A DNA stretch of 32,000 nucleotides from Microcystis aeruginosa NIES-843. Lineage in GTDB: Bacteria > Cyanobacteriota > Cyanobacteriia > Cyanobacteriales > Microcystaceae. The stretch lies in assembly GCF_000010625.1 (NCBI RefSeq), contig NC_010296.1:2850001-2882000 (forward strand), written 5' to 3'. The notes beneath the pieces are model-generated. The model searched no databases, was not told the DNA's origin, and saw only the letters and a program-made list of their open reading frames with translations. The position numbers and the translations under genes are program-made. This document shows positions 7,468 to 32,000 of the stretch, one piece after another. Positions within the stretch are counted from its first letter, which is position 1. Each line of letters opens with the position of its first letter.

Positions 7468-8777
7468 TCGGGTGCATCTCAATTTTGTAGAAATATCTAT
7501 ACTTTAGACGTTCATAATCTGAGATTTATTAAACTTCTGAAATCGTAGAGTCAGCAAGGAATCCAGTTCTTTTTTATGTTTCAAATGGGCATCATTCAAA
7601 CATTCATAAATGGCTGAAGAAAAGTCAGAAAAGTTTTCATAATATTTACCATATAAACATTTCTTTTTGACCAATTTCCACAGCCTTTCAATTAAATTTA
7701 GATTAGGTGAATAAGACGGCAGATAGAGCAGTTCTATTGACAAAGAAAGAGCTAATTCTTCAACAATTTTACATTTTTGATAGCGGGCATTATCTAAGAC
7801 TAGAGTGATGGGAATCATTAGTCCTAAAGCAGCTATTTTTTCAAGGAGTTCACAGACTTGAGTTGCCGTAATATAAGTGTCATTCGTAACCAGAATAACT
7901 TCATGAGTTATTGCATTTAATGCTCCTAAAACATTGAAGCGTTTACGCCCGCTCGGTGACTTAACAAAAAGTCTCTCAAAACACCAAACAAAACCGAGAA
8001 ATGCTCCCATGACGAAGTGAGCGGCATCAACAAAAAAAACAGCCCTTTTTCCTTCTTTAGCCTCATTTAGTCTGGGTTCTAGCTTTTTTTCTTTGTAGTC
8101 CTCTTGTTCATCTGGGTCAGCTTTAGAAGGAAGAGAACCTACTTTTAAACATTTCATTCCCATTGATTTTAAAAATTTTCTCACTTGGGTAGGACTTCGT
8201 TTTATTCCCGTCAATTCTTCTCTCCTATATACAGCTTCATTTATTGTGGCTGGTGGATTTTTCTCGAAGTATTTTTTGAGGGTTTCTTTTTGAGACTCTA
8301 ATTCACTTTTAGGGCGATAGAAGTTGATTTCTTTTAATTTTTCTATTCCGCCCTCTTGATAATCTCGAAGATAGGTTAATAAGGTATTTGGCGAGATTCC
8401 TGCTAACTGACAAATTTTTTGGTGCGGTATCTTTTGGCTTTTTAACCAGAGAACTTCCATCTTCAGTTGAACCCGGGGATGGGGATGATGAAATCTTTCA
8501 TAATACAGTGAGTTCTTTTCTTCTTCCGTGAATTCTAGGTTAATCATGTTTTTAATGAGTGCTTTGCTTCTAATTATGACTCTTAAACTATATTATTGTC
8601 CTTGAGTAAAAAATGCAAGTTGTAGCCGTGCAAAGTATATATTACAGGGCGCACGCGGTGCGCCCCTACTATTGGCGCAATAATATTATTGTAGGGGCGA
8701 ATTGCATTCGCCCTCTTTGAATAACTGCTGCTGCTCACCATAAGTGAGAGAAAGTCACAAATATCAGATGCACCCGA
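7468..8777 (-). mobile_element. IS630-family insertion sequence (approximate ends)
   Basis: Imperfect terminal inverted repeats TCGGGTGCATCT occur at 7468..7479 and as the reverse complement at 8766..8777. They enclose the transposase gene and a 230-bp leader. No clear TA duplication was seen. Confidence 0.6.
7504..8547 (-). CDS. IS630-family DDE transposase
   Basis: 347 aa with an N-terminal HTH. The DDE-type motifs are FFVDAAHF, LVLDNARYQ and LPSYSPNLNLIERLW. Confidence 0.9.
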   Translation of the reverse strand: MINLEFTEEEKNSLYYERFHHPHPRVQLKMEVLWLKSQKIPHQKICQLAGISPNTLLTYLRDYQEGGIEKLKEINFYRPKSELESQKETLKKYFEKNPPATINEAVYRREELTGIKRSPTQVRKFLKSMGMKCLKVGSLPSKADPDEQEDYKEKKLEPRLNEAKEGKRAVFFVDAAHFVMGAFLGFVWCFERLFVKSPSGRKRFNVLGALNAITHEVILVTNDTYITATQVCELLEKIAALGLMIPITLVLDNARYQKCKIVEELALSLSIELLYLPSYSPNLNLIERLWKLVKKKCLYGKYYENFSDFSSAIYECLNDAHLKHKKELDSLLTLRFQKFNKSQIMNV

Positions 8778-8851: not shown

Positions 8852-10651
8852 TTAAAAATTACCGTGATTTTGGATGGCACTTTCTAATTTTGCCACCACT
8901 TCCTCGACGCTAATTACCCCTAAATCGCCCGTGGCACGGGTGCGAATACTTAAACTATTACTTTCCATTTCTTTTGCCCCCACCACTGCCATCACGGGGA
9001 TTTTTGCGGTTTCAGCATTGCGAATCATTTTACCCAAACGTTCGCCACTGGTATCGGTTTCGGCGCGAATTCCTAACAATTGCATTTTCGCTGTCACCTC
9101 TTTAGCGTAATCCAATTGAGTATCACTAACCGGTAATAATCGTATCTGGACAGGGGCTAACCAAAGAGGAAAATCCCCCGCGTATTCTTCGATTAAAATA
9201 CCGATTAAACGTTCCAAAGAACCAAAAGGTGCGCGATGAATCATCACCGGACGTTTACGATTACCATCTTCGGCAACATATTCTAGTTCAAAACGTTCGG
9301 GTAAATTATAATCTACCTGTACCGTTCCTAACTGCCATTCTCTTTCGAGGGCATCTTGGAAAATAAAGTCTAATTTTGGACCATAAAAAGCCGCTTCTCC
9401 GGGGGCTTCAAAATAATCCATCCCCAAAGTTTGCACCGCTTTTCTAATCGCTGATTGTGCCTTTTCCCAAGCTTCATCGGAACCGATATACTTATCCGAT
9501 TCGGGGTCACGAAAACTCAATCGCGCCTTAAAATTCTTTAATTGTAAACTCTTAAACACCGTCAAAATTAAATCAACAACGCTTAAAAATTCCTTGTCTA
9601 ATTGTTCGGGAGTGACAAACAAATGGGAATCATCGACGGTAAAACCGCGAACTCTAGTTAACCCCCCCAATTCTCCCGATTGTTCGTAACGATAAACTGT
9701 CCCGAATTCTGCCAGACGCATCGGCAATTCCCGATAGGATCTCAAATCACTTTTATAGATTTGAATATGAAAAGGACAGTTCATCGGTTTGAGGACAAAT
9801 CCTATTTCTTTACCAGCAGATTCCTCATCGTCTGCCATCATGGGAAACATATCTTCTTTGTACTTTTGCCAGTGACCGGAAATTTTAAACAAATCCACGC
9901 GAGCAATATGGGGAGTAACTACGGGTAAATAACCGCGTTTTAACTGTTCTTTTTTGAGAAAATCTTCTAACAAAGAACGAATTAAAGTTCCTTTGGGGGT
10001 CCATAAAGGCAACCCCGGCCCGACAGAATCAGAGAAAATAAATAAACCTAATTCTTTGCCTAATTTGCGATGGTCTCGTTTCAGTGCTTCTTCCTTGCGG
10101 CGCTTGTATTCGGCTAATTGTTGGGGATTTTCCCAAGCTGTGCCGTAAATGCGCTGTAATTGGGCTTTATTCTCATCCCCACGCCAATAAGCACCCGCTA
10201 CCGTCTCTAATTCGATCGCTTTTGGGTCTAGTTCGCTTGTATTATCTAGGTGCGGACCGGCGCACAAATCCCACCAAGCGTCACCAAGATGATAAAGGGT
10301 GATGGGTTCTTGAATTCCCGCCAGAATTTCCAGCTTATAGACCTCATTAATCGCTTTAATGCGCTTTTCCGCTTCTTCCCGAGAAACTTGCTCGCGAATC
10401 ACCGGCAGTTTTTTATTGATAATTTTGACCATCTCTTTTTTGATGTCCTTGAGATCCTTATCGGTAAAAGGTTCCGGCACATCAAAATCGTAGTAAAATC
10501 CGGTTTCAGTCCAAGGTCCGATAGTAACTTGGGCTTTTGGGAATAATTTTTGCACCGCCATGGCCATCACATGGGAGGTGGTGTGACGAATGCGCTTGAG
10601 GTGGTCGGATTCGCTGGTTTTCGGTAGTTTAATCGGGGCTTGGTTATCCAT
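8852..10651 (-). CDS. thrS: Threonyl-tRNA synthetase, paralog 1 (no upstream Fur/Zur-type box seen)
   Basis: 599 aa. Editing-domain motifs are HTTSH and WWDLCAGPH. Catalytic Zn-ligand contexts are MNCPFH, FTVDDSH and MIHRA. An anticodon-binding domain is present and there is no TGS domain. Confidence 0.95.
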   Translation of the reverse strand: MDNQAPIKLPKTSESDHLKRIRHTTSHVMAMAVQKLFPKAQVTIGPWTETGFYYDFDVPEPFTDKDLKDIKKEMVKIINKKLPVIREQVSREEAEKRIKAINEVYKLEILAGIQEPITLYHLGDAWWDLCAGPHLDNTSELDPKAIELETVAGAYWRGDENKAQLQRIYGTAWENPQQLAEYKRRKEEALKRDHRKLGKELGLFIFSDSVGPGLPLWTPKGTLIRSLLEDFLKKEQLKRGYLPVVTPHIARVDLFKISGHWQKYKEDMFPMMADDEESAGKEIGFVLKPMNCPFHIQIYKSDLRSYRELPMRLAEFGTVYRYEQSGELGGLTRVRGFTVDDSHLFVTPEQLDKEFLSVVDLILTVFKSLQLKNFKARLSFRDPESDKYIGSDEAWEKAQSAIRKAVQTLGMDYFEAPGEAAFYGPKLDFIFQDALEREWQLGTVQVDYNLPERFELEYVAEDGNRKRPVMIHRAPFGSLERLIGILIEEYAGDFPLWLAPVQIRLLPVSDTQLDYAKEVTAKMQLLGIRAETDTSGERLGKMIRNAETAKIPVMAVVGAKEMESNSLSIRTRATGDLGVISVEEVVAKLESAIQNHGNF

Positions 10652-10785
10652 GTCTTTTGAATTTACACCTTCTCTATTCTCTATTTTAATGGTAAAAGGA
10701 GTCTTTAGTCAGGAAAAAAATCAAGATAGATATCAATGCCATTTCCCCCCATCTCTAACCTCTAAACCCTCATCTCTATTTCCCG

Positions 10786-11706
10786 ATGAAAAAACTAATT
10801 TTATCCTGTTTATTTTTGGGATTGGTTGCTTGTAATGATGCGGTTAATACCACCGATAACCAAAAACCTAAGGTAATCTCCACTAGCACAATTATCGCCG
10901 ATTTAACCGCACGAGTAGGCGGTGAAGAAATTGACCATCAAGACATTTTAAAACCAGGGGATGATCCCCACGTTTATGAACCAGTTCCCGCCGATAGTGT
11001 GGCTTTAGAAAAAGCCGATTTAATTCTCTATAACGGTTATAATCTCGAACCGGGGTTAATTAAAATGATCGATTCTACGGCAGTTAAAGCGAAAAAAGTG
11101 GCTGTGGGAGAAGCCATTACACCTTTACAACTGGAAAAAGAAGGGCAGAAAGTACCCGATCCCCATGTTTGGGGTTCGGCAAAAAATGGCATAATCATGG
11201 TGAAAAAAATCCGAGATCAATTGATTGAATTAAGTCCCGAAGATAAAGAGATTTTTACTGAAAATGCCGCCCAATTAATCAGGGAATTAGAAAATCTTGA
11301 TCGCTGGATTACTGCGGCTATTAAAACTATCCCCCCTTCCCAAAGGCAATTAGTCACCACTCATGACGCTTTTCAGTATTATGCTCATGCCTATGGTTTA
11401 AAAGTTGCAGGAACTTTAATTGGCATTAGTACCGAAGAACAACCTAGCGCCCAAACGGTGAAAAATTTAGCCGATGCTATTAAAAATCTCCAGGTTCCTG
11501 CTATCTTTGCCGAGACCACTATTAATCCCGCTTTAATTACCACTGTAGCCGAAGAAGCGGGGGTAAAATTAGCACCAAAACAATTATATTCTGATTCGAT
11601 CGGCGCGGTGGGTACTAGGGGGGATAGTTATGTAAAAATGCTCAGGGAAAATACTCGCTCGATCGTGGAATCTTTAGGGGGAAAAGTACCTCAAGAAGGT
11701 CAATAG
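10786..11706 (+). CDS. Metal ABC transporter substrate-binding lipoprotein (ZnuA/TroA/MntC cluster A-I family)
   Basis: 306 aa with lipobox LGLVAC. Ligand contexts are DPHVYEP, DPHVWGS, THDAFQYY and YSDSIG. It has no His-rich loop, and no cognate permease or ATPase gene is adjacent. Confidence 0.85.
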   Translation: MKKLILSCLFLGLVACNDAVNTTDNQKPKVISTSTIIADLTARVGGEEIDHQDILKPGDDPHVYEPVPADSVALEKADLILYNGYNLEPGLIKMIDSTAVKAKKVAVGEAITPLQLEKEGQKVPDPHVWGSAKNGIIMVKKIRDQLIELSPEDKEIFTENAAQLIRELENLDRWITAAIKTIPPSQRQLVTTHDAFQYYAHAYGLKVAGTLIGISTEEQPSAQTVKNLADAIKNLQVPAIFAETTINPALITTVAEEAGVKLAPKQLYSDSIGAVGTRGDSYVKMLRENTRSIVESLGGKVPQEGQ

Positions 11707-11837
11707 ACCTCTTGTAAAAATCAAAAAATTGTCCTTAGAGTCAGGAGTTAGGAAGGCAGAAATACCGACAATCAGCAATTATCGGTGACTTTTAGATGAT
11801 GACAAATGGATCAGCAGCTGCCTGTAAGCATCCCACC

Positions 11838-11918
11838 GAAAAGCTAATGCGCGGGGGGTTTGGGGGCGGCGCCACGCCCCCAACGGGGGGTTTGGGGGGT
11901 AGAACCCCCCAAAAGCTT
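11838..11918. repeat. G/C-tract palindromic element bounded by AAAAGCT / AGCTTTT
   Basis: GGGGGGTTTGGGGG occurs twice. Hairpins are GGGGGCG-GCGCCA-CGCCCCC and GGGGGG-TAGAA-CCCCCC. It lies between convergent genes. Confidence 0.6.
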
Positions 11919-12008
11919 GGATTGAGGGAAAAAATCGAAAGTAACGCCCGACTTTAGCAGAGAGTTTCCCCTTAAAAATCCCAACTTAGTAGATTTACAA
12001 AGCGGGGT

Positions 12009-13112
12009 TTATTTCCCAAATCCTTTACCGCGATTGACAGCAGGTAAAATGAGACAACTGTTAATCTGTTCTTTTAGGGTTTCATGATCGAGATTTTGAC
12101 CGATAAGAACTAGCTGATTTTTGGGAGTACCTTTCCATTCGTCATCTTCGAGAGTAAAACGTTTGCCACTGAGGTGAAAAATATGACGTTTAGGACTTTC
12201 ATCAAACCAGAGAATACCCTTAGCGCGGAAAACGCTTTCCGGTAACTGATTATCGAGGAAATATTGGAACTTCCGAATCGAAAAAGGTTGGTCACTAGCA
12301 AAGGAAATAGAAGTAAATCCATCCACCTCTAAATGATTGGAATGGTCGTGATGATCATGATCGTGATCGTGGTGGTGATCATGGTCGTGATCATGATCGC
12401 AATGGTCGTGATCGTGGTCGTGGTGATCATGGTCGTGGTGTTCTTCTTCTGTGTCGAAATATTTATCCGATTCAAATAGTCCGACGCTGAGAATTAAGGG
12501 TAAAGGAACCTGACTTTTGCTAGTACGAAGAATTCTCGCTCCTTGCTTCATGTCCCGGATTCTTATTTCTAAAGAATCCACATCCGCTTCATCCACTAGA
12601 TCGGTTTTATTGAGAACAATAATATCACCGTAGGTGATTTGACTTAAGGCCGCTTGCGAGTTGAATAAATCGAGACTAAAATTGGCACAATCCACCATAG
12701 TGACAATGGAATCTAAACGGGTCATTTCCCGTAATTCTGTACCTAAAAAGGTTAAAGCTACCGGTAAAGGATCGGCTAATCCCGTGGTTTCTACGACTAA
12801 ATAATCGATTTTTTCGGGACGTTCGAGAATTTTATAAACTGCTTGAATTAAATCCTCGTTGATCGTGCAGCAAATACAGCCATTATTTAATTCTACCATG
12901 CTGTCATCACTACTGATAATCAGTTCATTATCGATACCGATTTCACCGAATTCATTGACAAGAACAGCAGTTTTTAATCCCTGTTGATTGCTGAGAATAT
13001 GATTGAGGAGAGTAGTCTTACCACTACCAAGAAACCCAGTAATAATTGTTACCGGTAGCCCTTTTTTTGGCACTGACATCGTGTTAATAGCTTGTGATTC
13101 GACGGTTTGCAT
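12009..13112 (-). CDS. COG0523-family metallochaperone GTPase (CobW/ZigA/YeiR-like) with His/Asp-rich tract
   Basis: 367 aa. Motifs are P-loop GFLGSGKTT, GCICC, ETTGLADP and LNKTD, plus a CobW_C-like C-terminus. A 36-residue tract, HHDHDHHDHDHDHCDHDHDHDHHHDHDHDHHDHSNH, lies at residues 225-260. Confidence 0.92.
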   Translation of the reverse strand: MQTVESQAINTMSVPKKGLPVTIITGFLGSGKTTLLNHILSNQQGLKTAVLVNEFGEIGIDNELIISSDDSMVELNNGCICCTINEDLIQAVYKILERPEKIDYLVVETTGLADPLPVALTFLGTELREMTRLDSIVTMVDCANFSLDLFNSQAALSQITYGDIIVLNKTDLVDEADVDSLEIRIRDMKQGARILRTSKSQVPLPLILSVGLFESDKYFDTEEEHHDHDHHDHDHDHCDHDHDHDHHHDHDHDHHDHSNHLEVDGFTSISFASDQPFSIRKFQYFLDNQLPESVFRAKGILWFDESPKRHIFHLSGKRFTLEDDEWKGTPKNQLVLIGQNLDHETLKEQINSCLILPAVNRGKGFGK

Positions 13113-13164: not shown

Positions 13165-13320
13165 ATAAGTAAGTGGTTTCAATTAAATTGAAGATAGATT
13201 TTGTCTTTGATCCCCCCTGCCCCCCTTGATAAGGGGGGTGCCGATAGGCGGGGGGATCCCCCCTTAATTCCCCCTTGATAAGGGGGGGGGATGTGACAAT
13301 TTTTAACATCCACTTACTTA
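13165..13320 (+). mobile_element. MITE copy C (same G/C-tract family)
   Basis: Termini are ATAAGTAAGTGG and CCACTTACTTA. The internal CCCCTTGATAAGGGGGGTGCCGATAGGCGGGGGGATCCCCCC matches copies A and B. Confidence 0.85.
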
Positions 13321-16583: not shown

Positions 16584-17195
16584 TTAGCTAATCATCGCCA
16601 ATAAACCTTGATAAAAAATCTGAAAACTAGGAGAACAATTATGAGCAGGAGTCATAAATTGAGAAATTTCTCGGGCTGCTTTCACTTTTTCTAAACCTCC
16701 TCGATGATACCCAGCTTTTTGAAGTATCTTTTCTAAGTTTTCCCAAGTTCCCCCCGTAATTTCATCGGGTTTTCTGTATTTTGCTTGCTGTCCCACATTA
16801 GTAGAAACTTTGGGATAGGCTGAGACTATAGCCTGAATATCACCAAAAAACCAAGCTTCTAGTTCTTCTATAGCAATTCTATTTAACACCTGAAATGTTT
16901 TTTTATCTTCACTAATCGTTTTGGTGATCAGTCCTGTTTGTTGGGCAATATTTTCTAACTTTTCTTTGAGCATTTGACAATCTTCATTGTCTCTATCTAC
17001 AAGAATAATGATTCGATAATCATCGGGTATCCAGCATTGATAGCCTTTTAATCGCTCCGGTAGTTTTTTGATTAAATCGGATTTACCTCGAAAGGCATGA
17101 ATTTTATAGGTGACATTCTCAAATAATATTTTAGGTAAAATTTGATTTAAACATTCTTGGGTAGAAAATTCTTCAACTAAAAATTCAAGATGCAC
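16584..17195 (-). CDS. TOPRIM-like small protein (DUF4276-type), partner of the upstream ATPase
   Basis: 203 aa with a GTG start preceded by AAGGAGGG. It has an N-terminal strand plus acidic pair LVEEFS, then IILVDRDNED (DxD) and IEELEAWFFGD. The family name is from memory and is unverified. Confidence 0.6.
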   Translation of the reverse strand: MHLEFLVEEFSTQECLNQILPKILFENVTYKIHAFRGKSDLIKKLPERLKGYQCWIPDDYRIIILVDRDNEDCQMLKEKLENIAQQTGLITKTISEDKKTFQVLNRIAIEELEAWFFGDIQAIVSAYPKVSTNVGQQAKYRKPDEITGGTWENLEKILQKAGYHRGGLEKVKAAREISQFMTPAHNCSPSFQIFYQGLLAMIS

Positions 17196-17219
17196 TTTTT
17201 CCCTCCTTTGCTATTAAAC

Positions 17220-18407
17220 TTAAATGCTAGGATTACCCACATCAAAATAGTCCTCCATCCATAATTGACCCAACAAAGCACCATTTTGAATAAATTCCTT
17301 AACTCCTTGCATTGCTGAAGTACGTTTAGCTTGAGTAAAACCATTTTCATCTCGATAAAGTACCCAAACCTCCTCTGGTTTCAAACCATCTACAAAAAAG
17401 GGAGAATGAGTTGTTACCATTAATTGTGTACTTGCGGTCGCTGCCCGACATTCTTCTGCTAATTCAGGTAATAAACGGGGATGAAGATGATTTTCTGGTT
17501 CTTCTATTCCCAGTAATTGCGGAGGGCTTGGATCATATAATATAGTTAAATAAGCCAACATTTTTAAAGTGCCATCGGAGGCAAATTTGGCAAGAATTGG
17601 CTCTTGAAAAGGTGCGTCTTTAATTTGAAGTAAAAGCTGTCCATTCGGCATAATAGATGCTTCTACTTTTTCTAATCTGGGAATTCGACGAGAAAGGGTT
17701 TGTAAAATAGATTCTAATCGTTGAGGATGATCTTCTTTTAAATATTGAATAACATTAGGTAAATTGTCACCAGTTGGCGATAATCTTTCTTGCGCTCCTG
17801 CTTCTGGTTGAGTGCGAGTATTATCTGCGGTTAAGTAGGAAAGATACCAACTTGTGATAAAACGACGCAAAGCACTAACCCGGGGATGTTTGGCCAATTG
17901 TCCGAGGGTACTAACAGCTAAAAATTCCGGGGAGTCTAATCGTTCAGAAATTCGTTTATCTTTTGGTTTGGGATTTTCTCCACTAACCACTATTCCTCCC
18001 CCTTCTTTAAAGTCTAAAAAGCGATAAGGTTTGCCCTTCGCTCCTTGTCTCCACTGTAACCATTCTTCGGCAACATAAGGGCGATTGTTAGCTTCATTAA
18101 TAGCCAAATGATAGGTAATTAAAGGTGATGCCAATTTTTCTCGATATTTTAATTCGATAATGATGTAACCTTCTTGTCCTCTGGTTCTTAATTCTTTAAA
18201 TCTTCCCCGTCTGTCCCAAGCTTTTTTTAAACCAACAGTAAAACATTCAGAGAGGAAAGCAAAGACATCAAATATGGTAGATTTTCCGCTCCCATTAGGA
18301 CCGAGAAAAACGGTTAAAGGAGTAATGCTTTTTAATTCTAAGTCCTGTAAAGCTCGGTAATTTTGCACGCGCAGATTTTCGATTCGAGGTATAGAGTTTT
18401 TAGACAT
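17220..18407 (-). CDS. ABC-type AAA ATPase (AAA_15/AAA_21, OLD/AriA/PtuA-like)
   Basis: 395 aa. Walker A is GPNGSGKST, Walker B and D-loop are [13 protein letters not shown], and the H-loop is VTTHSP. A long insert lies between the N and C lobes. Confidence 0.8.
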
Positions 18408-25596: not shown

Positions 25597-25624
25597 TTAG
25601 ACATCAGCCCTCCTTTGCTACAAT
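25597..25624 (+). promoter_or_regulatory. Putative sigma70-type promoter of thrS paralog 2 (-35 TTAGAC, 16-nt spacer, -10 TACAAT)
   Basis: The hexamers are at 25597..25602 and 25619..25624, 27 nt upstream of the ATG. Confidence 0.55.
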
Positions 25625-25639
25625 GATAATCATTATCAT
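25623..25639. promoter_or_regulatory. Fur/Zur-family operator, perfect 17-bp palindrome ATGATAAT-C-ATTATCAT
   Basis: The palindrome is perfect by direct reading. It contains AATGATAATCATTATC, which matches the classical Fur-box core and the 7-1-7 TGATAATNATTATCA type. It overlaps the -10 box. Confidence 0.8.
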
Positions 25640-25650
25640 CGTAGCTGGCA

Positions 25651-27507
25651 ATGGTCAATCAAATTAAGTCCCCCCGAGCAGAAAGCCCCGTTATCGAAGA
25701 AGATTCGCAAAAAATCGTAAAAATACGCCATACTTGCGCCCATATCTTAGCGATGGCTGTACAAACTCTCTTTCCTGAAACCAAAGTCGCTATTGGTCCC
25801 TGGACAGAAACGGGATTCTACTACGATTTCGATCGCCCAACACCCTTTACCCCCGAAGATTTGGAGAAAATAGCGGCAGAAATGGGGCGAATTATCGGGA
25901 AAAACCTGCCAATTATCCGAGAAGTGCTGGAAAGAAGCGAAATTACCGCAGAAATCGAGCGCCTTAATCAACCCTACAAACGGTCAATTTTAGAGAGAAT
26001 TCCCCCAGATGAAACCATTACCCGTTATTTTATCGGTAGTCCGGACGCAGGACGGAGCGATCGAGAACCCTCGTTAATTGATGGTGCTGTTTCTCCCCCG
26101 GAAGAATTTTGGTGGGATCTGTGCGCGGGACCGCATCTCAACTCGACGGGGGAAATTAACCCCGATGCTTTCGCCTTGGAGAGTGTAGCGGGTGCTTATT
26201 GGCAAGGAGATGAAAAACAGCCGCAATTACAGCGAATTTACGGCACAGCTTGGCAAACCCCCGCAGAATTACAAAATTATCTCCAACAAAAAGAAGAAGC
26301 GCAGCGACGAGATCATCGCAAATTGGGACAACAATTAAAATTATTTAGCATCCAAGAAGATGCAGGTGGAGGCTTAGTTTTTTGGCATCCCCGGGGTGCA
26401 ACAATGCGTTATTTAATCGAAGATTATTGGCGCCAAGCTCATTTAGAAGCGGGTTATCAATTTCTTTATACTCCCCATCTAGCTAATTTAGATTTGTGGA
26501 AAACTTCCGGACATTGGGACTTTTATCGCGACAATATGTTTGAGGCGATCGAGTTAGAACAGCAAAGCTATCAAATTAAGCCGATGAATTGTCCTTTTCA
26601 TGTTTTAACCTATCAAAATGACCTGCATTCCTATCGAGAATTTCCCCTCAGATGGGCAGAATTAGGCACAGTTTATCGTTACGAGCGATCGGGGGTTTTA
26701 CACGGATTAATGCGGGTGCGAGGATTTACTCAAGATGATGCTCATATTTTCTGTTTACCAGAACAAATTGCCGCAGAGATTCTAGGAGTTTTGAACTTAA
26801 CCGAGAAAATTCTCTCCGATTTTGGCTTTACTAATTATCAGATAAATTTATCGACTCGCCCCAGTAAATCCGTGGGTAGTGATAGTGTTTGGGAATTGGC
26901 AACGGCGGCTCTAATTGAGGCCTTAAATGCTAAAAAGTGGGATTATATTGAGGATCAGGGAGGTGGGGCTTTTTATGGTCCGAAAATTGATATAAAAATT
27001 CAAGATGCGATCGGTAGAATGTGGCAATGTTCCACGATTCAGGTCGATTTTAACTTGCCAGAACGCTTTGATATGCAATATGTCGCTAGGGATGGTACTC
27101 GGGAAAGACCGATTATGATTCATCGAGCTATTTTTGGCTCTTTGGAAAGATTTTTTGGCATTTTAATCGAGAATTATGCGGGAGATTTTCCTCTCTGGTT
27201 AGCACCTATTCAAGTCCGTTTATTACCCGTTAGTGATGAACAGCAGCATTATGCTTTAGGGGTGGCAATGCAGTTAAAACAAGCTGGTTATCGAGTGGAA
27301 ATCGATAAAACTGGTGAGCGTTTAGGTAAACAAATTCGTACAGGAGAACTAGAAAAAATCCCTGTCTTAGCTGTGATTGGAAAACGAGAAGTTAGCAGTA
27401 AAACTCTAAGTGTTCGCACTCGACAAGGGGGAGATTTAGGTTCGATGACGCTGGTAGATTTATTAGGAAAAATGCAAACAGCGATCCTATCTAAAACTAA
27501 TCTCTGA
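25651..27507 (+). CDS. thrS: Threonyl-tRNA synthetase, paralog 2 (operator-controlled)
   Basis: 618 aa. It has HTCAH, WWDLCAGPH, MNCPFH, FTQDDAH and MIHRA. It is collinear with paralog 1 except for a ~22-aa insertion before WWDLC. Confidence 0.95.
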   Translation: MVNQIKSPRAESPVIEEDSQKIVKIRHTCAHILAMAVQTLFPETKVAIGPWTETGFYYDFDRPTPFTPEDLEKIAAEMGRIIGKNLPIIREVLERSEITAEIERLNQPYKRSILERIPPDETITRYFIGSPDAGRSDREPSLIDGAVSPPEEFWWDLCAGPHLNSTGEINPDAFALESVAGAYWQGDEKQPQLQRIYGTAWQTPAELQNYLQQKEEAQRRDHRKLGQQLKLFSIQEDAGGGLVFWHPRGATMRYLIEDYWRQAHLEAGYQFLYTPHLANLDLWKTSGHWDFYRDNMFEAIELEQQSYQIKPMNCPFHVLTYQNDLHSYREFPLRWAELGTVYRYERSGVLHGLMRVRGFTQDDAHIFCLPEQIAAEILGVLNLTEKILSDFGFTNYQINLSTRPSKSVGSDSVWELATAALIEALNAKKWDYIEDQGGGAFYGPKIDIKIQDAIGRMWQCSTIQVDFNLPERFDMQYVARDGTRERPIMIHRAIFGSLERFFGILIENYAGDFPLWLAPIQVRLLPVSDEQQHYALGVAMQLKQAGYRVEIDKTGERLGKQIRTGELEKIPVLAVIGKREVSSKTLSVRTRQGGDLGSMTLVDLLGKMQTAILSKTNL

Positions 27508-27620: not shown

Positions 27621-28652
27621 ATGAGTTCTTTGATAATTCCTCTCTCCGATTCTCTCCCTTGCTTGCCTAAATCGGGAATGCCTGTGACGATCATTACTGG
27701 TTTTTTAGGGAGTGGAAAAACCACCTTACTAAATCATATTCTTGACAATAAAGAAGGGTTAAAAGTTGCCGTATTAGTCAATGAGTTTGGGGATATTAAT
27801 ATTGATTCTCAATTGCTTGTTTCCATCGATGAAGATATGGTAGAATTGAGTAATGGCTGTATTTGTTGTACAATTAATGATAGTTTAATTGAGACAGTCT
27901 ATCAGGTCTTAGAAAAAGAAATACCCGTGGACTATCTAATCATTGAAACCACAGGATTAGCCGATCCTTTGCCAATTATCCTCACTTTCCTGGCCACGGA
28001 ATTAAAATATCTGACTCGCTTAGATTCTATTATTACCCTCGTGGATTCTGAAACCTTTACGGCGGATCATTTTGATAGTAACATTGCCCTTAGTCAAATT
28101 CGTTATGGTGACGTGGTAATTCTCAATAAAATAGATCGAGTCAGTGGCAAAAAATTAGATGATTTAGAAAAGTTTATTCGTCGAGAAAAAGAGGGTATAA
28201 GACTCCTAAAAAGTAGTTATGGTCAGGTTCCTTTGGGTTTATTGTTAGATTTAGGTTTAACTAAAGAAGAATTGTATAAAAACCAATTTAGAGACTTTCA
28301 AAAAAATCGCCAAAGCTCCAGTGATAATCAATCTCCTGAAGACTTTAATTTTGTCTCTTTTGTTAGCAATAAACCATTTAATCTAGATAAATTTGAACCT
28401 TTTCTCACGGAAAAAATGCCGATGAATGTTTTTCGAGCAAAAGGGATTCTCTGGTTTCAACAAAGCGATTTAAAACATATTTTTCAATTGAGCGGTCTCC
28501 GTTACGATCTGCAAGCGGTAGAATGGGATACATCTCCTCAGAATCAGTTAGTTTTTATCGGCAGAAATTTAAATAAAGAGGAAATCTTGACACAACTAAA
28601 CGAATGCTTGGCTAGTTCTCAAAAAATTAAAAAGGACAAACTAAGTAGGTAG
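27621..28652 (+). CDS. COG0523-family metallochaperone GTPase (no His-rich tract)
   Basis: 343 aa with GFLGSGKTT, GCICC, ETTGLADP and LNKID, plus a CobW_C-like C-terminus. It lies 113 nt after thrS paralog 2 with no terminator seen. The last codons and the stop lie in a MITE terminus. Confidence 0.92.
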   Translation: MSSLIIPLSDSLPCLPKSGMPVTIITGFLGSGKTTLLNHILDNKEGLKVAVLVNEFGDINIDSQLLVSIDEDMVELSNGCICCTINDSLIETVYQVLEKEIPVDYLIIETTGLADPLPIILTFLATELKYLTRLDSIITLVDSETFTADHFDSNIALSQIRYGDVVILNKIDRVSGKKLDDLEKFIRREKEGIRLLKSSYGQVPLGLLLDLGLTKEELYKNQFRDFQKNRQSSSDNQSPEDFNFVSFVSNKPFNLDKFEPFLTEKMPMNVFRAKGILWFQQSDLKHIFQLSGLRYDLQAVEWDTSPQNQLVFIGRNLNKEEILTQLNECLASSQKIKKDKLSR

Positions 28653-28739
28653 GTGTTAAAAGTTTTCAGACACCCCCCCCTTATTAAGGGGGGATTAAGG
28701 GGGGGACTAAGGGGGGATCGGCACCCCCCTTATCAAGGG
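28642..28739 (-). mobile_element. MITE copy D, left portion (interrupted by an IS)
   Basis: The terminus TAAGTAGGTAGGTGTTAAAAG and G/C-tract modules are present. The copy is broken after CCCCTTATCAAGGG. Confidence 0.8.
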
Positions 28740-30157
28740 TAGGGCTGTTTCATTCTCCCATCAGAATATCAAAAGTAAAAGCGATCAATATCAGGTAAAA
28801 TGATAAGTGACCGCCAACCTTTTAAATATATGTTGAGCTTAATAGAAAAACTGAAACAAGTCAAGGACTTTCGGAAAGATAAAGGAAAAAGACACCCTTT
28901 ATGGATAGTATTAGTAGTAATAATACTGGGAACAATGCTAGGATACTCAGGTTATAGAGAACTAGGAGAGTTTGCTAAAAATAATCGGCACAGGCTCAGT
29001 AAAGAATTTAACATAATTCCAGAAAGAGTCCCATCCTATTCAACAATTAGAAGGGTAATGATGGGAGTTGACTGGCAGAGTTTGTTAAAAATGTTTAATG
29101 AATGGGCATTAGAAGAATATGGACAAAGAGATGATATAAATTGGCTAGGTATGGATGGAAAAAGTCTCAAAAACACCCTAAAGAATCCTAATAATGAACA
29201 ACAAAATTTTATCATGTTTGTCTCATTGTTTAGTCAAGAAAGTGGATTAGTATTACACTTAAAAAGAATCGAAAACAAAAAAGGGTCTGAAATCGACGAA
29301 GGGCAAGCTATAATTGAGGATTGCTCTCTCCAAAATAAAGTTTTTACTGGCGATGCTTTACACTGTCAGAAAAAAACAATCAGCTTAATAGCCAAGAGTA
29401 AAAATGACTATGTTATCACCGTTAAAGGAAATCAGAAAAATCTTTATAAGCGAATACAAGACCTGAGTAATTCCTCAAAGCCAGAAAGTTGCTTTCTTGA
29501 ACAAGATAATAGTCATGGACGAAAAATATCAAGAAAAATAGAAGTTTTTAAAGTGAGAAAAAATGAAAGACAAGGGTTTGAAAATCTGCGAAGAGTTATT
29601 AAAGTAGAAAGAAAGGGTAGTCGCGGGGATAAAACCTATGAAGAAACAGCTTACTATATCAGTAGCCTAACCGAATCCGCTCAAGTATTTGCTAAAATTA
29701 TTCGAGGACATTGGAAAATAGAAAATCAGTTACATTGGGTAAAAGATGTAATTTTTGAGGAAGATAAAAGCGAGATAAGTGATTTTCAAGCGGCCAGCAA
29801 TTGGTCAATTCTCACAACTATAGGATTGAATCTTTTCAGAGGTTTGGGTTTTCTCTCAATAACAGAGGGACAGAGGTGGTTAGCTGAACGTTGGGAAAAA
29901 CTGATAGTTTTATCGACGTAAGAAGCAGAAAAATTAGCTAAATTAACAGGATGTACTCTCAGACAATTTCAAGAAAGATAGGCTTTTAGTGGCTTGGAAA
30001 CAGGCTTTATCAATTTATTCATAATCAATATTGGCAGAGGATTAAAGATTAGTTATTGTCACTAACTCTTTTGATTAGAAAAAGATAAACTTGAGAATTT
30101 TCATTCAAATTTATTGACTCAAAATCAGCTGTAATTAATTTAAATGAAACAGCCCTA
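28740..30157 (+). mobile_element. ISAs1-family insertion sequence (1418 bp)
   Basis: Terminal inverted repeats are TAGGGCTGTTTCAT at 28740 and ATGAAACAGCCCTA ending at 30157. The flanking duplication lies within CCCTTATCAAGGG. Its length is ambiguous at 7-13 bp because the target is palindromic. Confidence 0.85.
28800..29921 (+). CDS. ISAs1-family (H-repeat-associated) transposase
   Basis: 373 aa. It has N-terminal DFRKDKGKRHPLWIVLVVIILGTMLGYSGYRELGEFA and C-terminal RGHWKIENQLHWVKDVIFEED, both typical of ISAs1. Confidence 0.9.
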   Translation: MISDRQPFKYMLSLIEKLKQVKDFRKDKGKRHPLWIVLVVIILGTMLGYSGYRELGEFAKNNRHRLSKEFNIIPERVPSYSTIRRVMMGVDWQSLLKMFNEWALEEYGQRDDINWLGMDGKSLKNTLKNPNNEQQNFIMFVSLFSQESGLVLHLKRIENKKGSEIDEGQAIIEDCSLQNKVFTGDALHCQKKTISLIAKSKNDYVITVKGNQKNLYKRIQDLSNSSKPESCFLEQDNSHGRKISRKIEVFKVRKNERQGFENLRRVIKVERKGSRGDKTYEETAYYISSLTESAQVFAKIIRGHWKIENQLHWVKDVIFEEDKSEISDFQAASNWSILTTIGLNLFRGLGFLSITEGQRWLAERWEKLIVLST

Positions 30158-30227
30158 CCCTTATCAAGGGGGGCAGGGGGATCGAACCTAAAATCCATTT
30201 TTAATTTAATTATAACCAGCTACTTAT
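30158..30227 (-). mobile_element. MITE copy D, right portion
   Basis: The sequence continues CCCTTATCAAGGGGGGCAGGGGGATCG... through TAATTTAATTATAACCAGCTACTTAT. It matches the outer end of copy B. Confidence 0.8.
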
Positions 30228-30537
30228 GAATAATTTATGGATAAAAACTTTAAAATTTAACGAACCCTCGATCCCATGGTTTTACATCTCTTTGTTCTCC
30301 AAGTTCATTATCGCAAACCCTTGCACTTTACGGAAGCGGCGATCGATTAAGGGAACAATTAAAAACGAGGGGAATTACCTTAGTTGATTTACCCGATGGA
30401 CAAAGCCAATGGTATCCTAGAGAAAAGAGCCATAACCATGATTAATATCCCAAGAAACCGCCAATTTTTCCCAAAATAACCTGGCTAAGTCTAGAGGATT
30501 GGTTAAGGAAGATTACTTGCCCCAATCTGACTTATGC

Positions 30538-30557
30538 TAGAATGATTATCATTATCA
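30538..30557. promoter_or_regulatory. Second Fur/Zur-family operator (TGATTATCATTATCA) overlapping a -10 hexamer TAGAAT
   Basis: The 22-mer TGCTAGAATGATTATCATTATCA differs at only 2 positions from TGCTACAATGATAATCATTATCA upstream of thrS paralog 2. Confidence 0.75.
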
Positions 30558-30574
30558 CAGTAGAGAAGGAGCAA

Positions 30575-31354
30575 ATGATTATCGTGGTAACGGGGGGTAT
30601 AGCAGCGGGAAAAACCCACTGGATTCGCGAACAAATCGCCAAACAGACGCAGCCAAGTCTATATTTTAGTCCCCAGACGGAAACTTTTCCCATTGATCGC
30701 CTCACTTTAGAGAGTGACTTTCCCCAGTTGTCCTGTGTTTCTAGGGAAGAAGAAGACCTTTTGAGCAGTTTATCCATGGAAAACACGATCTATATGGAAG
30801 TACCATGGCATTTAGACACGCAATCCCTCGAAAGCTTTCTAAAACCCCTCAATTGTCATCGGGTAGCGATTACGTCTCCAGAAGCAGAAATCCCCGAAGG
30901 ACAAGTGCCCGTCGATGAAATTGTCTTCAGTCCCGTCAAAACAACCATAAAAGGCGATCAATGGTTAAAAAAACGAGAAATACAGATTTATAGAGCCGTT
31001 TTAACGGGAGAAGTCCTCGATTTTTCCAGTTTAACTACCTTTTGGACAGAATTAACCCAAGGGGCCTATGGGGAAGTGCTGCGGGTTAAAAGTATCTTCG
31101 ATATCATCGATGGTCAGTGTATTTATGGGGAATTTATGGATGAATGGCCAGAAAAAGACTTTCAAAGCTTAAATTTCCCCTTAAATCTCGATGGGAGACC
31201 GAATCGCTTTAGTGGGATTGAAATCGTCGGTCGCAATCTCGATAAACCGACAATTGCCGATACCCTGAGTGATTGTTGTCTGTCCGATGAGGCACTTTTG
31301 TATTATCAACAACAATTTCAAGAATCTTTAGAGCCAGAAATGGATTTAATCTGA
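30575..31354 (+). CDS. Degenerate COG0523-like P-loop protein lacking the CxCC motif
   Basis: ATG 30575 is preceded by GAAGGAG. The track start at 30542 would place the operator inside the CDS. The N-terminus is IIVVTGGIAAGKT, and CobW_C-like segments are GEVLRVKSIFDI and IEIVGRNLDKPTI. There is no GCxCC and no NKxD. Confidence 0.6.
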   Translation: MIIVVTGGIAAGKTHWIREQIAKQTQPSLYFSPQTETFPIDRLTLESDFPQLSCVSREEEDLLSSLSMENTIYMEVPWHLDTQSLESFLKPLNCHRVAITSPEAEIPEGQVPVDEIVFSPVKTTIKGDQWLKKREIQIYRAVLTGEVLDFSSLTTFWTELTQGAYGEVLRVKSIFDIIDGQCIYGEFMDEWPEKDFQSLNFPLNLDGRPNRFSGIEIVGRNLDKPTIADTLSDCCLSDEALLYYQQQFQESLEPEMDLI

Positions 31355-32000
31355 TGAAAATAGCCGTTTTATCCTGTATTCATGGCAATATGCCCGCTTT
31401 TAATGCTGTTTTGCGAGATTTAGGCCAACAGGGTTGTCAAGAAATCTACTGTTTAGGGGATTTGGTTGGGTATGGACCCCATCCTAACCAAGTGGTGGAA
31501 AAAATCCGTCAACTGGGTATTACCACGGTACAAGGGTGTTGGGATGAGGATATCGTTGAGGGATTAAATGCCTGTGAGTGCAGTTATCCGTCGCTTTTAG
31601 CAGAAAAACGGGGTAGATTAGCTCATGAGTGGACAAATCAAATAATTACCTCGGAAAACCGTAATTATTTGTCAAAACTGCCCGAAATTTTTAAGCTAGA
31701 TCACCTCTGTTTTGTCCATGGTAGTCCCCAAAGTAACCATGAGTACCTTTTAGCCGAAATGGACGCTTTTACGGCTTTAGAACGGGTTTTATCGGTAGAT
31801 ACAGAGGTTTTATTCTGTGGACATACCCACATCCCCTACATTCGCACTCTCGACGCGGGAAGCTTGCAAATAAAAGTGTATCAACCCGATGGGGAACAGT
31901 CGCGGCAATTTACCACACCGGTTAAACGTATCATCAACGTGGGATCGGTGGGAGAACCGCGTCACGGTCGTCCAAATGCCACCTATGTGATTTACGATCG
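31354..32000 (+). CDS. Metallophosphoesterase (Metallophos_2 / YfcE-MJ0936-like), partial, with Cys-substituted metal motifs
   Basis: The ATG overlaps the upstream stop (TGATG). The translation is MKIAVLSCIHGN...CLGDLVGYGP...VQGCWDED...FVHGSP...CGHTHIPY...NVGSVGEPRHG. The frame is open to the window end, so it is absent from the ORF track. Confidence 0.8.
   Translation, partial: MKIAVLSCIHGNMPAFNAVLRDLGQQGCQEIYCLGDLVGYGPHPNQVVEKIRQLGITTVQGCWDEDIVEGLNACECSYPSLLAEKRGRLAHEWTNQIITSENRNYLSKLPEIFKLDHLCFVHGSPQSNHEYLLAEMDAFTALERVLSVDTEVLFCGHTHIPYIRTLDAGSLQIKVYQPDGEQSRQFTTPVKRIINVGSVGEPRHGRPNATYVIYD

Follow-up and report, generated by a model that had tools for sequence, protein, structure and literature searches.

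The 32,000-nucleotide stretch of Microcystis aeruginosa NIES-843 DNA analysed here (NC_010296.1, positions 2,850,001 to 2,882,000 of the forward strand; hereafter the window, with coordinates counted from its first letter) ends in what would be the start of a Zur-repressed operon for a phylum-wide three-protein module. The first gene, here called X, encodes a predicted descendant of the COG0523 metallochaperones, followed by a gene for a cysteine-substituted metallophosphoesterase (MPE), MPE1; a second metallophosphoesterase gene, MPE2, is the third. On sequence evidence the unit comprises these three genes, and MPE1, not X, is its strongly conserved and chemically odd part. The reading preferred here, which we rate slightly short of an even chance, is that X has a nucleotide-dependent accessory or assembly role towards an MPE1-MPE2 hydrolase with thiolate ligands that is produced when zinc is limiting. 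Zur regulons with an accessory protein of the COG0523 type are already known; a CxCC-less variant fixed across the phylum to a Cys-ligated metallophosphoesterase and a pseudo-paralog appears to be new. The earlier note on this DNA recognised no described system of this kind, and the literature accessible to searching likewise held no paper linking a metallophosphoesterase with Zur and COG0523, nor X-MPE1-MPE2 as a named Zur regulon member.

To our knowledge, the clients of COG0523-type zinc chaperones are established in only a handful of cases. In nearly all surveyed cyanobacteria, Prochlorococcus included, a COG0523 descendant is tied to one enzyme, here through overlapping codons. The two form a testable candidate pair and, if the reading is right, would link a chaperone to a defined client in a family where most clients are unknown. 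If the module aids growth at low zinc, it would also bear on trace-metal limitation of bloom-forming Microcystis and of oceanic Prochlorococcus and Synechococcus.

Gene X and its promoter region

The unit occupies the end of the window with the following features.

30535-30543, + strand: extended -10 promoter element TGcTAGAAT, by direct reading
30543-30557, + strand: Zur-type operator, 7-1-7 palindrome TGATTAT-C-ATTATCA (TGATTATCATTATCA), one mismatch to the consensus
30565-30571, + strand: Shine-Dalgarno sequence GAAGGAG, by direct reading, kept in other Microcystis strains
30575-31354, + strand: gene X, a 259-residue diverged COG0523/G3E homolog (AlphaFold2 model, Foldseek, hhalign, profile search and a weak CobW_C match)
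31354-32000, + strand: MPE1, a metallophosphoesterase with Cys substitutions, of whose ~269 codons the window includes the first 215

X runs from the ATG at 30575 to the TGA at 31352-31354, and the Shine-Dalgarno sequence, start codon and 259-residue product described in the earlier note are all present. So is the overlap of its stop codon with the MPE1 ATG at 31354-31356, because of which translation of the two genes is predicted to be coupled. A possible start at 30542, raised in the same note, is rejected: all 61 close homologs start MI.., and three other Microcystis strains carry an in-frame stop four codons upstream of the X start, which points to 30575 as the real one. The closest homolog (93% identical) is from M. 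aeruginosa, and X proteins are labelled in databases as 'GTP-binding protein' or 'CobW C-terminal domain-containing protein'. The ortholog in Anabaena PCC 7120, a genetically tractable strain in which experiments on the module would be straightforward, is BAB73154.1. It could not be shown that alr1197, a COG0523 gene listed in a review, is X; alr1200 encodes an HlyD-type protein, so synteny with Nostoc 7524 was no help, and searches with neighbouring locus tags were empty.

X descends from COG0523 proteins

X consists of a trimmed P-loop domain (residues ~1-120), a CobW_C-like domain (~145-235) and a C-terminal helix. With its AlphaFold2 model (predicted local distance difference test score 88.5, predicted template modelling score 0.85), a Foldseek search of the PDB returned YjiA first, over both domains (E 6e-7, probability 1.0), followed by the SIMIBI GTPases FtsY, FlhF and Ffh and, lower down, HypB and UreG. 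Alignment by hhalign of 74 X sequences with ~30 canonical COG0523 sequences was colinear from X 1-246 to COG0523 21-341 (93.6% probability, E 2e-7); a previous run against eight COG0523 sequences had aligned the C-terminal domain alone, and the wider alignment gave both domains. A hidden Markov model (HMM) of X matched just 157 clusters among 1.84 billion representatives (clustered at 50% identity), and the tail of its list consisted of canonical cobW plus CobW_C proteins, matched in two colinear stretches. Against Pfam CobW_C the window protein scored 13.7 bits, under the 22-bit cut-off, and all 61 close homologs gave a weak match (best 6.6e-7). X had no match in NCBIfam at E ≤0.1, the Mrf model NF047431 included, and none in PADLOC; sequence searches of the PDB, with the single sequence and with a profile, gave chance P-loop matches only. 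Because the fold, hhalign and HMM evidence agree, X is placed as a compact, separate family descended from COG0523, and the resemblance at both ends proposed in the earlier note is best read as true COG0523 kinship of a degenerate kind, extending over the two domains.

X keeps a good Walker A motif, which reads GGIAAGKT in the window protein, and among the 74 relatives the full GxxxxGK[ST] is present in 66 and GK[ST] in 73. Residues G10, G12, K13, T14, D41 and E75 are 95-100% conserved; E75, after a hydrophobic strand, is invariant and is followed by LG[FQ] in about half of the family and by VPW in Microcystis. The CxCC metal motif is found in 0/74 X relatives versus 28/28 canonical COG0523 proteins from the same loci, and [NT]KxD in 1/74, a chance match, versus 28/28; both had been reported missing from the window protein before. 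In the hhalign alignment S28-L-Y30-F of X stands at the CxCC position, with a ~32-residue switch-I deletion ahead of it. Because Walker A and the invariant Glu are kept, the label pseudo-GTPase is not established for X. A surface motif of the CobW_C-like domain is strongly conserved, with D149, S152, L153, E159, A164-Y-G166, R170, K172 and G180 at 100% and W157 and G163 at 92-93%. The CC pair pointed out near the end of the protein is there in the window sequence but is not a family feature, C234 being kept in 66/74 and C235 in just 38/74.

Like the COG0523/G3E GTPases (YjiA, ZigA, ZagA, Zng1 and CobW), X combines a SIMIBI P-loop domain with CobW_C, YjiA being its best structural match; it has Walker A, is Zur-linked and adjoins canonical COG0523 genes. 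It differs in being ~80-100 residues shorter, in the absence of the ~32-residue switch-I block, CxCC and NKxD, in an apparently altered ExxG, and in forming a separate family fixed upstream of one particular enzyme gene.

MPE1 has a cysteine-substituted metal site

MPE1 matches Pfam Metallophos_2 (1.1e-19, 71.4 bits against a cut-off of 27), and its full length was seen in another Microcystis strain (locus L007 of the survey described below). Its closest structural neighbours are 3rqz (uncharacterised), SapH/Spr1479 (3qfm, an Ap4A hydrolase/phosphodiesterase), 1nnw, 2gju and YfcE. The fold and motifs II, IV and V are common to MPE1 and the SapH/Spr1479 and 3rqz types (YfcE/MJ0936 relatives), with SapH the nearest characterised relative, and the GD, HGS and GHTH motifs are retained. 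Departing from that type, motif I is S-C-I-H in place of the canonical D-x-H and motif III is G-C-W-D in place of G-N-H-D; in addition, MPE1 has an insert, N-A-C-E-C-S-Y-P-S, with a CxC, and a C-terminal tail, D-D-P-T-H-V-C-E-R, with an HxC. Essentially every cyanobacterial ortholog has C8, H10, D36, C62, W63, D64, C74, C76, H122, H157, H159, H265 and C267. MPE1 is therefore described here as a predicted member of the superfamily with a non-canonical metal site. Its AlphaFold2 model has low confidence solely at residues 65-78 (the CxC insert) and 253-269 (the HxC tail), which hints at metal- or partner-dependent ordering of these segments and perhaps at an extra metal site.

Cysteines would take the place of two metal ligands at the dinuclear site of MPE1. 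The change in motif I was described as unique to the eukaryotic enzyme Dbr1. In Dbr1 the motif-I Cys stably binds Zn in the alpha pocket of an Fe/Zn centre (PMC9202583). The motif-I Asp is replaced by Cys in both proteins; unlike MPE1, Dbr1 is eukaryotic, belongs to a different metallophosphoesterase clade, has a lariat-recognition domain and keeps the motif III Asn, and no homology is claimed beyond the superfamily.

MPE2 (232 residues) is the third gene, beyond the window end, as seen in other strains. It is a paralog of the metallophosphoesterases (E 7.6e-8 to 2gju) with no Pfam match, and the ligands of motifs I, III and V are missing from it.

The gene order is conserved across cyanobacteria

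A co-occurrence survey, as suggested in the earlier note, was made with one genome per species and yielded at least 598 genome stretches with an MPE1 relative, of which the best 80 loci were analysed with HMMs built for the purpose. X lies immediately upstream of MPE1 in 67/69 cyanobacterial loci; one exception is a contig edge and the other has znuA in that place. The two genes overlap by 4 nucleotides (nt) in 40 of the 69, and the gap between them is ≤8 nt in 62. MPE2 is downstream of MPE1 in 64/69, within 300 nt in 54, and the trio is present in all 18 picocyanobacterial loci (Prochlorococcus, marine Synechococcus and Cyanobium). Loci anchored on X gave the same picture, with MPE1 following in 9/9; they span Crocosphaera, Pleurocapsa, Lusitaniella, three Microcystis strains and a distant metagenomic lineage, and the same arrangement holds at the MPE1-anchored loci of Nostoc 7524, Chamaesiphon and Gloeothece 7424. 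Compared with the Microcystis proteins, and with picocyanobacteria excluded, X has a median identity of 38%, MPE1 of 70% and MPE2 of 57%. The trio is repeatedly found among thrS2, hemB2, folE, cysS and hisI paralogs, znuA and canonical COG0523 genes.

Outside cyanobacteria, three lineages have a Cys-type MPE1 but neither X nor MPE2: Verrucomicrobiales, Thaumarchaeota and Pseudobacteriovorax. In the thaumarchaeal metagenome-assembled genome (L079, 190-4816), genes for a WD40 protein, a ZIP zinc transporter and a canonical COG0523 protein lie upstream of it, which reads as an independent association with a zinc cluster. More distant MPE1 relatives (Anaerolineae, Chloroflexia, Halobacteriales and Sumerlaeota) have the canonical Asp and Asn and keep the CxC.

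Two further arrangements were noted in these loci. A COG0523 or CobW_C-only gene is paired with a WD40 beta-propeller gene in several zinc clusters (L001, 11631-12780; L003, 7691-9249; L010, 11424-12813; L079, 190-3318), and in Prochlorococcus a gene for a HupE/UreJ-family (Ni/Co-type) membrane protein is upstream of the trio (L061, 1811-2563).

A Zur-type box overlaps the predicted promoter of X

The operator at 30543-30557 overlaps the extended -10 of the X promoter: TAGAAT occupies 30538-30543, one base is common to the -10 and the box, and the preceding TG makes it an extended -10. A generic sigma-70 scan gave no -35/-10 pair at this promoter. The cyanobacterial 7-1-7 consensus bound by Anabaena Zur is TGATAAT-N-ATTATCA (Napolitano 2012, as described in PMC3323870), so the box flagged from the letters alone is a good match to a published Zur site. 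Five matches with ≤2 mismatches are present in the window versus 1.0 expected, and five were reached in 0/100 shuffles. One of them, a perfect copy of the consensus, belongs to a neighbouring unit of the same cluster.

25616-25638, + strand: sister promoter/operator, extended -10 plus perfect Zur box (25624-25638), directly upstream of thrS2
25651-27507, + strand: thrS2 (Pfam), in the neighbouring Zur-box unit
27621-28652, + strand: canonical COG0523 gene (Pfam), in the thrS2 Zur-box unit

The extended string that the earlier note saw in both promoters is indeed shared, at 25616-25638 and 30535-30557, but it is 23 nt long rather than 22, TGCTA[C/G]AATGAT[A/T]ATCATTATCA, with a chance expectation of 0. 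It is most simply explained as an extended -10 plus a Zur box. Duplication of the promoter as its source was rejected because the X promoter is kept in Microcystis strains (L007-L009) whose upstream genes differ; the extended -10 and Zur box suffice. No box with ≤2 mismatches is present near thrS paralog 1, znuA and the His-rich COG0523 gene (8852-13112), unlike at thrS2 and X; the nearest candidate there is a three-mismatch site at 13294-13308.

The box was then sought up to 250 nt upstream of X at 67 loci, allowing ≤2 mismatches to the 7-1-7 consensus, against a background of 1.7% per window searched. It is present in 37/49 non-picocyanobacterial species, is kept upstream of X orthologs in many genera, and is enriched with a binomial tail of about 5e-51 for all 67. 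At loci with no box adjoining X, X is often downstream of genes that have one, for example thrS2, hemB2 or COG0523-folE. The Anabaena PCC 7120 regulon (all4725-all4721, znuABC and others) has the same 7-1-7 box over the promoter and thrS2, hemB2, folE and COG0523 as neighbours; it reportedly comprises 23 genes. From the box, its position and its conservation we infer Zur control of X-MPE1-MPE2 in Microcystis.

In Lusitaniella (L004, 9086-9835), MPE2 is detached from MPE1, ~1.5 kb farther downstream, with a Zur box of its own whose sequence, TGATTATCATTATCA, is that of the window copy.

Proposed function and alternatives

When zinc falls, Zur would leave the 7-1-7 box over the extended -10, and X, MPE1 and MPE2 would be transcribed, with X and MPE1 probably acting as a complex. 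X would descend from a COG0523 metallochaperone that lost the switch-I block, CxCC and the guanine-specificity motif but kept the P-loop, the invariant Glu and the highly conserved CobW_C-like surface, and it would carry no metal through CxCC. Its client would be MPE1, a phosphodiesterase of the SapH/3rqz type whose dinuclear centre would have two thiolate ligands, besides the CxC and HxC, and which is probably paired with MPE2 as a catalytically dead paralog. Tight Zn or Fe binding would be expected from the thiolates of MPE1, by analogy with the motif-I Cys of Dbr1, and MPE1 could therefore be metallated when zinc is scarce. That X acts on MPE1 is suggested by the overlapping codons, the strictly kept gene order and the origin of X in a metallochaperone family; an accessory or assembly role is suggested by the loss of CxCC together with retention of the P-loop and the invariant Glu. 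That the proteins form a complex, that X is a chaperone, and which metal and substrate MPE1 takes are all points that we infer from sequence comparison. The fullest statement of the proposal is an unrecognised phylum-wide zinc-limitation module in which a CxCC-less COG0523 descendant is a dedicated nucleotide-driven assembly factor and its client a metallophosphoesterase with thiolate ligands like those of Dbr1, the first from bacteria, in a heterodimer with a pseudo-enzyme paralog; we regard this as tentative and somewhat doubtful.

Several observations weigh against the proposal that X is an assembly factor made under zinc limitation. X has no obvious metal site, and it evolves much faster than MPE1 (38% versus 70% median identity). 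An uncultured Cyanobacterium sp. (L052, 1269-7718), the sole complete cyanobacterial survey locus with no X upstream, encodes znuCB, a His-rich znuA, MPE1, MPE2 and thrS2, and X must therefore be dispensable there or encoded elsewhere. Among picocyanobacteria the trio is kept, yet a Zur box is found upstream of X in just 2/18. In a zur mutant of Synechococcus PCC 7002, finally, an unexplained 'phosphoesterase' gene, G0129, and its neighbour G0130, both part of the Zur-controlled hemB-II/folE-II cluster, reportedly were not derepressed (PMC4628125); the identity of G0129 and G0130 with MPE1 and MPE2 could not be verified.

The main rival is that X is a zinc-starvation adaptor or regulator that delivers no metal, senses a nucleotide and switches or targets MPE1-MPE2, in the manner of Mrf. 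We judge it unlikely, though it accounts for several features of X: CxCC is missing from all 74 relatives, the loss of NKxD permits other nucleotides, and the CobW_C-like domain has its conserved surface motif. There is also a precedent in the Zur-regulated Rv0106/Mrf, a COG0523-like protein that has no GTPase motifs and recruits Mpy, a hibernation factor (PMC2770081, PMC7431043). Mrf (Rv0106/MSMEG_6069) resembles X in being degenerate, COG0523-like and Zur-linked with the canonical metal motif lost, and acts on a specific partner in zinc starvation. The likeness ends with the failure of X to match the Mrf model, with Walker A, which X retains and Rv0106 does not, and with the partner, a phosphoesterase pair in place of a ribosome hibernation factor.

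Rather unlikely, in our estimation, is that the trio serves cyanobacteria as a housekeeping enzyme system whose function is not specifically a response to zinc, with Zur boxes as a secondary regulatory overlay in many lineages. The presence of the trio in streamlined Prochlorococcus and Synechococcus genomes with so few boxes fits this explanation, as do the very high phylum-wide conservation of MPE1 and the PCC 7002 result, to the extent that G0129 is an MPE1 ortholog. It sits poorly with the frequency of the box in the other species relative to background, with the recurrence of the trio among zinc-sparing paralogs and znu genes, and with the ZIP-COG0523 neighbourhood in an archaeon; moreover, picocyanobacterial Zur boxes may differ from the consensus scanned for.

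In a further explanation, MPE1 is a zinc-independent replacement of a zinc-dependent phosphoesterase, comparable to ThrRS2, HemB2 and FolE2, and X is specialised to load it with Fe, Ni, Co or Mn. The neighbours of the trio are classic paralog replacements, a HupE/UreJ-type Ni/Co transporter gene stands upstream of it in Prochlorococcus, and non-cyanobacterial relatives with canonical Asp/Asn ligands exist. We nevertheless consider it quite improbable: no zinc-dependent counterpart of MPE1 was identified, a Cys ligand stabilises Zn in Dbr1, and thiolates disfavour Mn.

The earlier note offered as an alternative a nuclease/ATPase pair that has nothing to do with metals, which would be of the SbcCD or Mre11-Rad50 type. 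The coupling of a P-loop protein to a metallophosphoesterase speaks for it, but it is hardly credible, given that neither Mre11 nor SbcD is among the top 50 structure neighbours of MPE1, that X is a 259-residue protein of SIMIBI/COG0523 fold with no ABC signature and no coiled coil, and that the unit has no PADLOC defence match and lies in a zinc-homeostasis context. A defence-system reading of the unit was rejected on the same lack of a PADLOC defence match.

Neighbourhood in the window

The canonical COG0523 gene of the thrS2 unit is parted from X in the window by an insertion sequence.

28724-30173, + strand: insertion sequence, 1.45 kb, with 31-nt inverted repeats at 28724-54 and 30143-73
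28800-29921, + strand: transposase of the insertion sequence (DDE_Tnp_1)

The element is absent from strain L007, where the thrS2-COG0523 genes directly abut X. A 41-nt stretch at 30225-30265 recurs with 100% identity at the COG0523/PRA-CH junction of a different Microcystis strain (L008, 8101-8141). That strain has hisI- and cysS-like paralogs between COG0523 and X, and the stretch looks like the remnant of a strain-level rearrangement. G/C-rich palindromic repeats (CCCCCCTTATCAAGGGG-like) are present in the intergenic regions 13200-13290 and 28670-28745, one of them abutting the left end of the insertion sequence. A second transposase gene (DDE_3 with a helix-turn-helix; 7504-8547, - strand) adjoins thrS paralog 1. 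Genes for an AAA_21 ATPase and a DUF4276 protein at 16584-18407 (- strand) match HEC-01, a candidate defence system in PADLOC (HEC-01A 1.6e-175, HEC-01B 1.1e-99).

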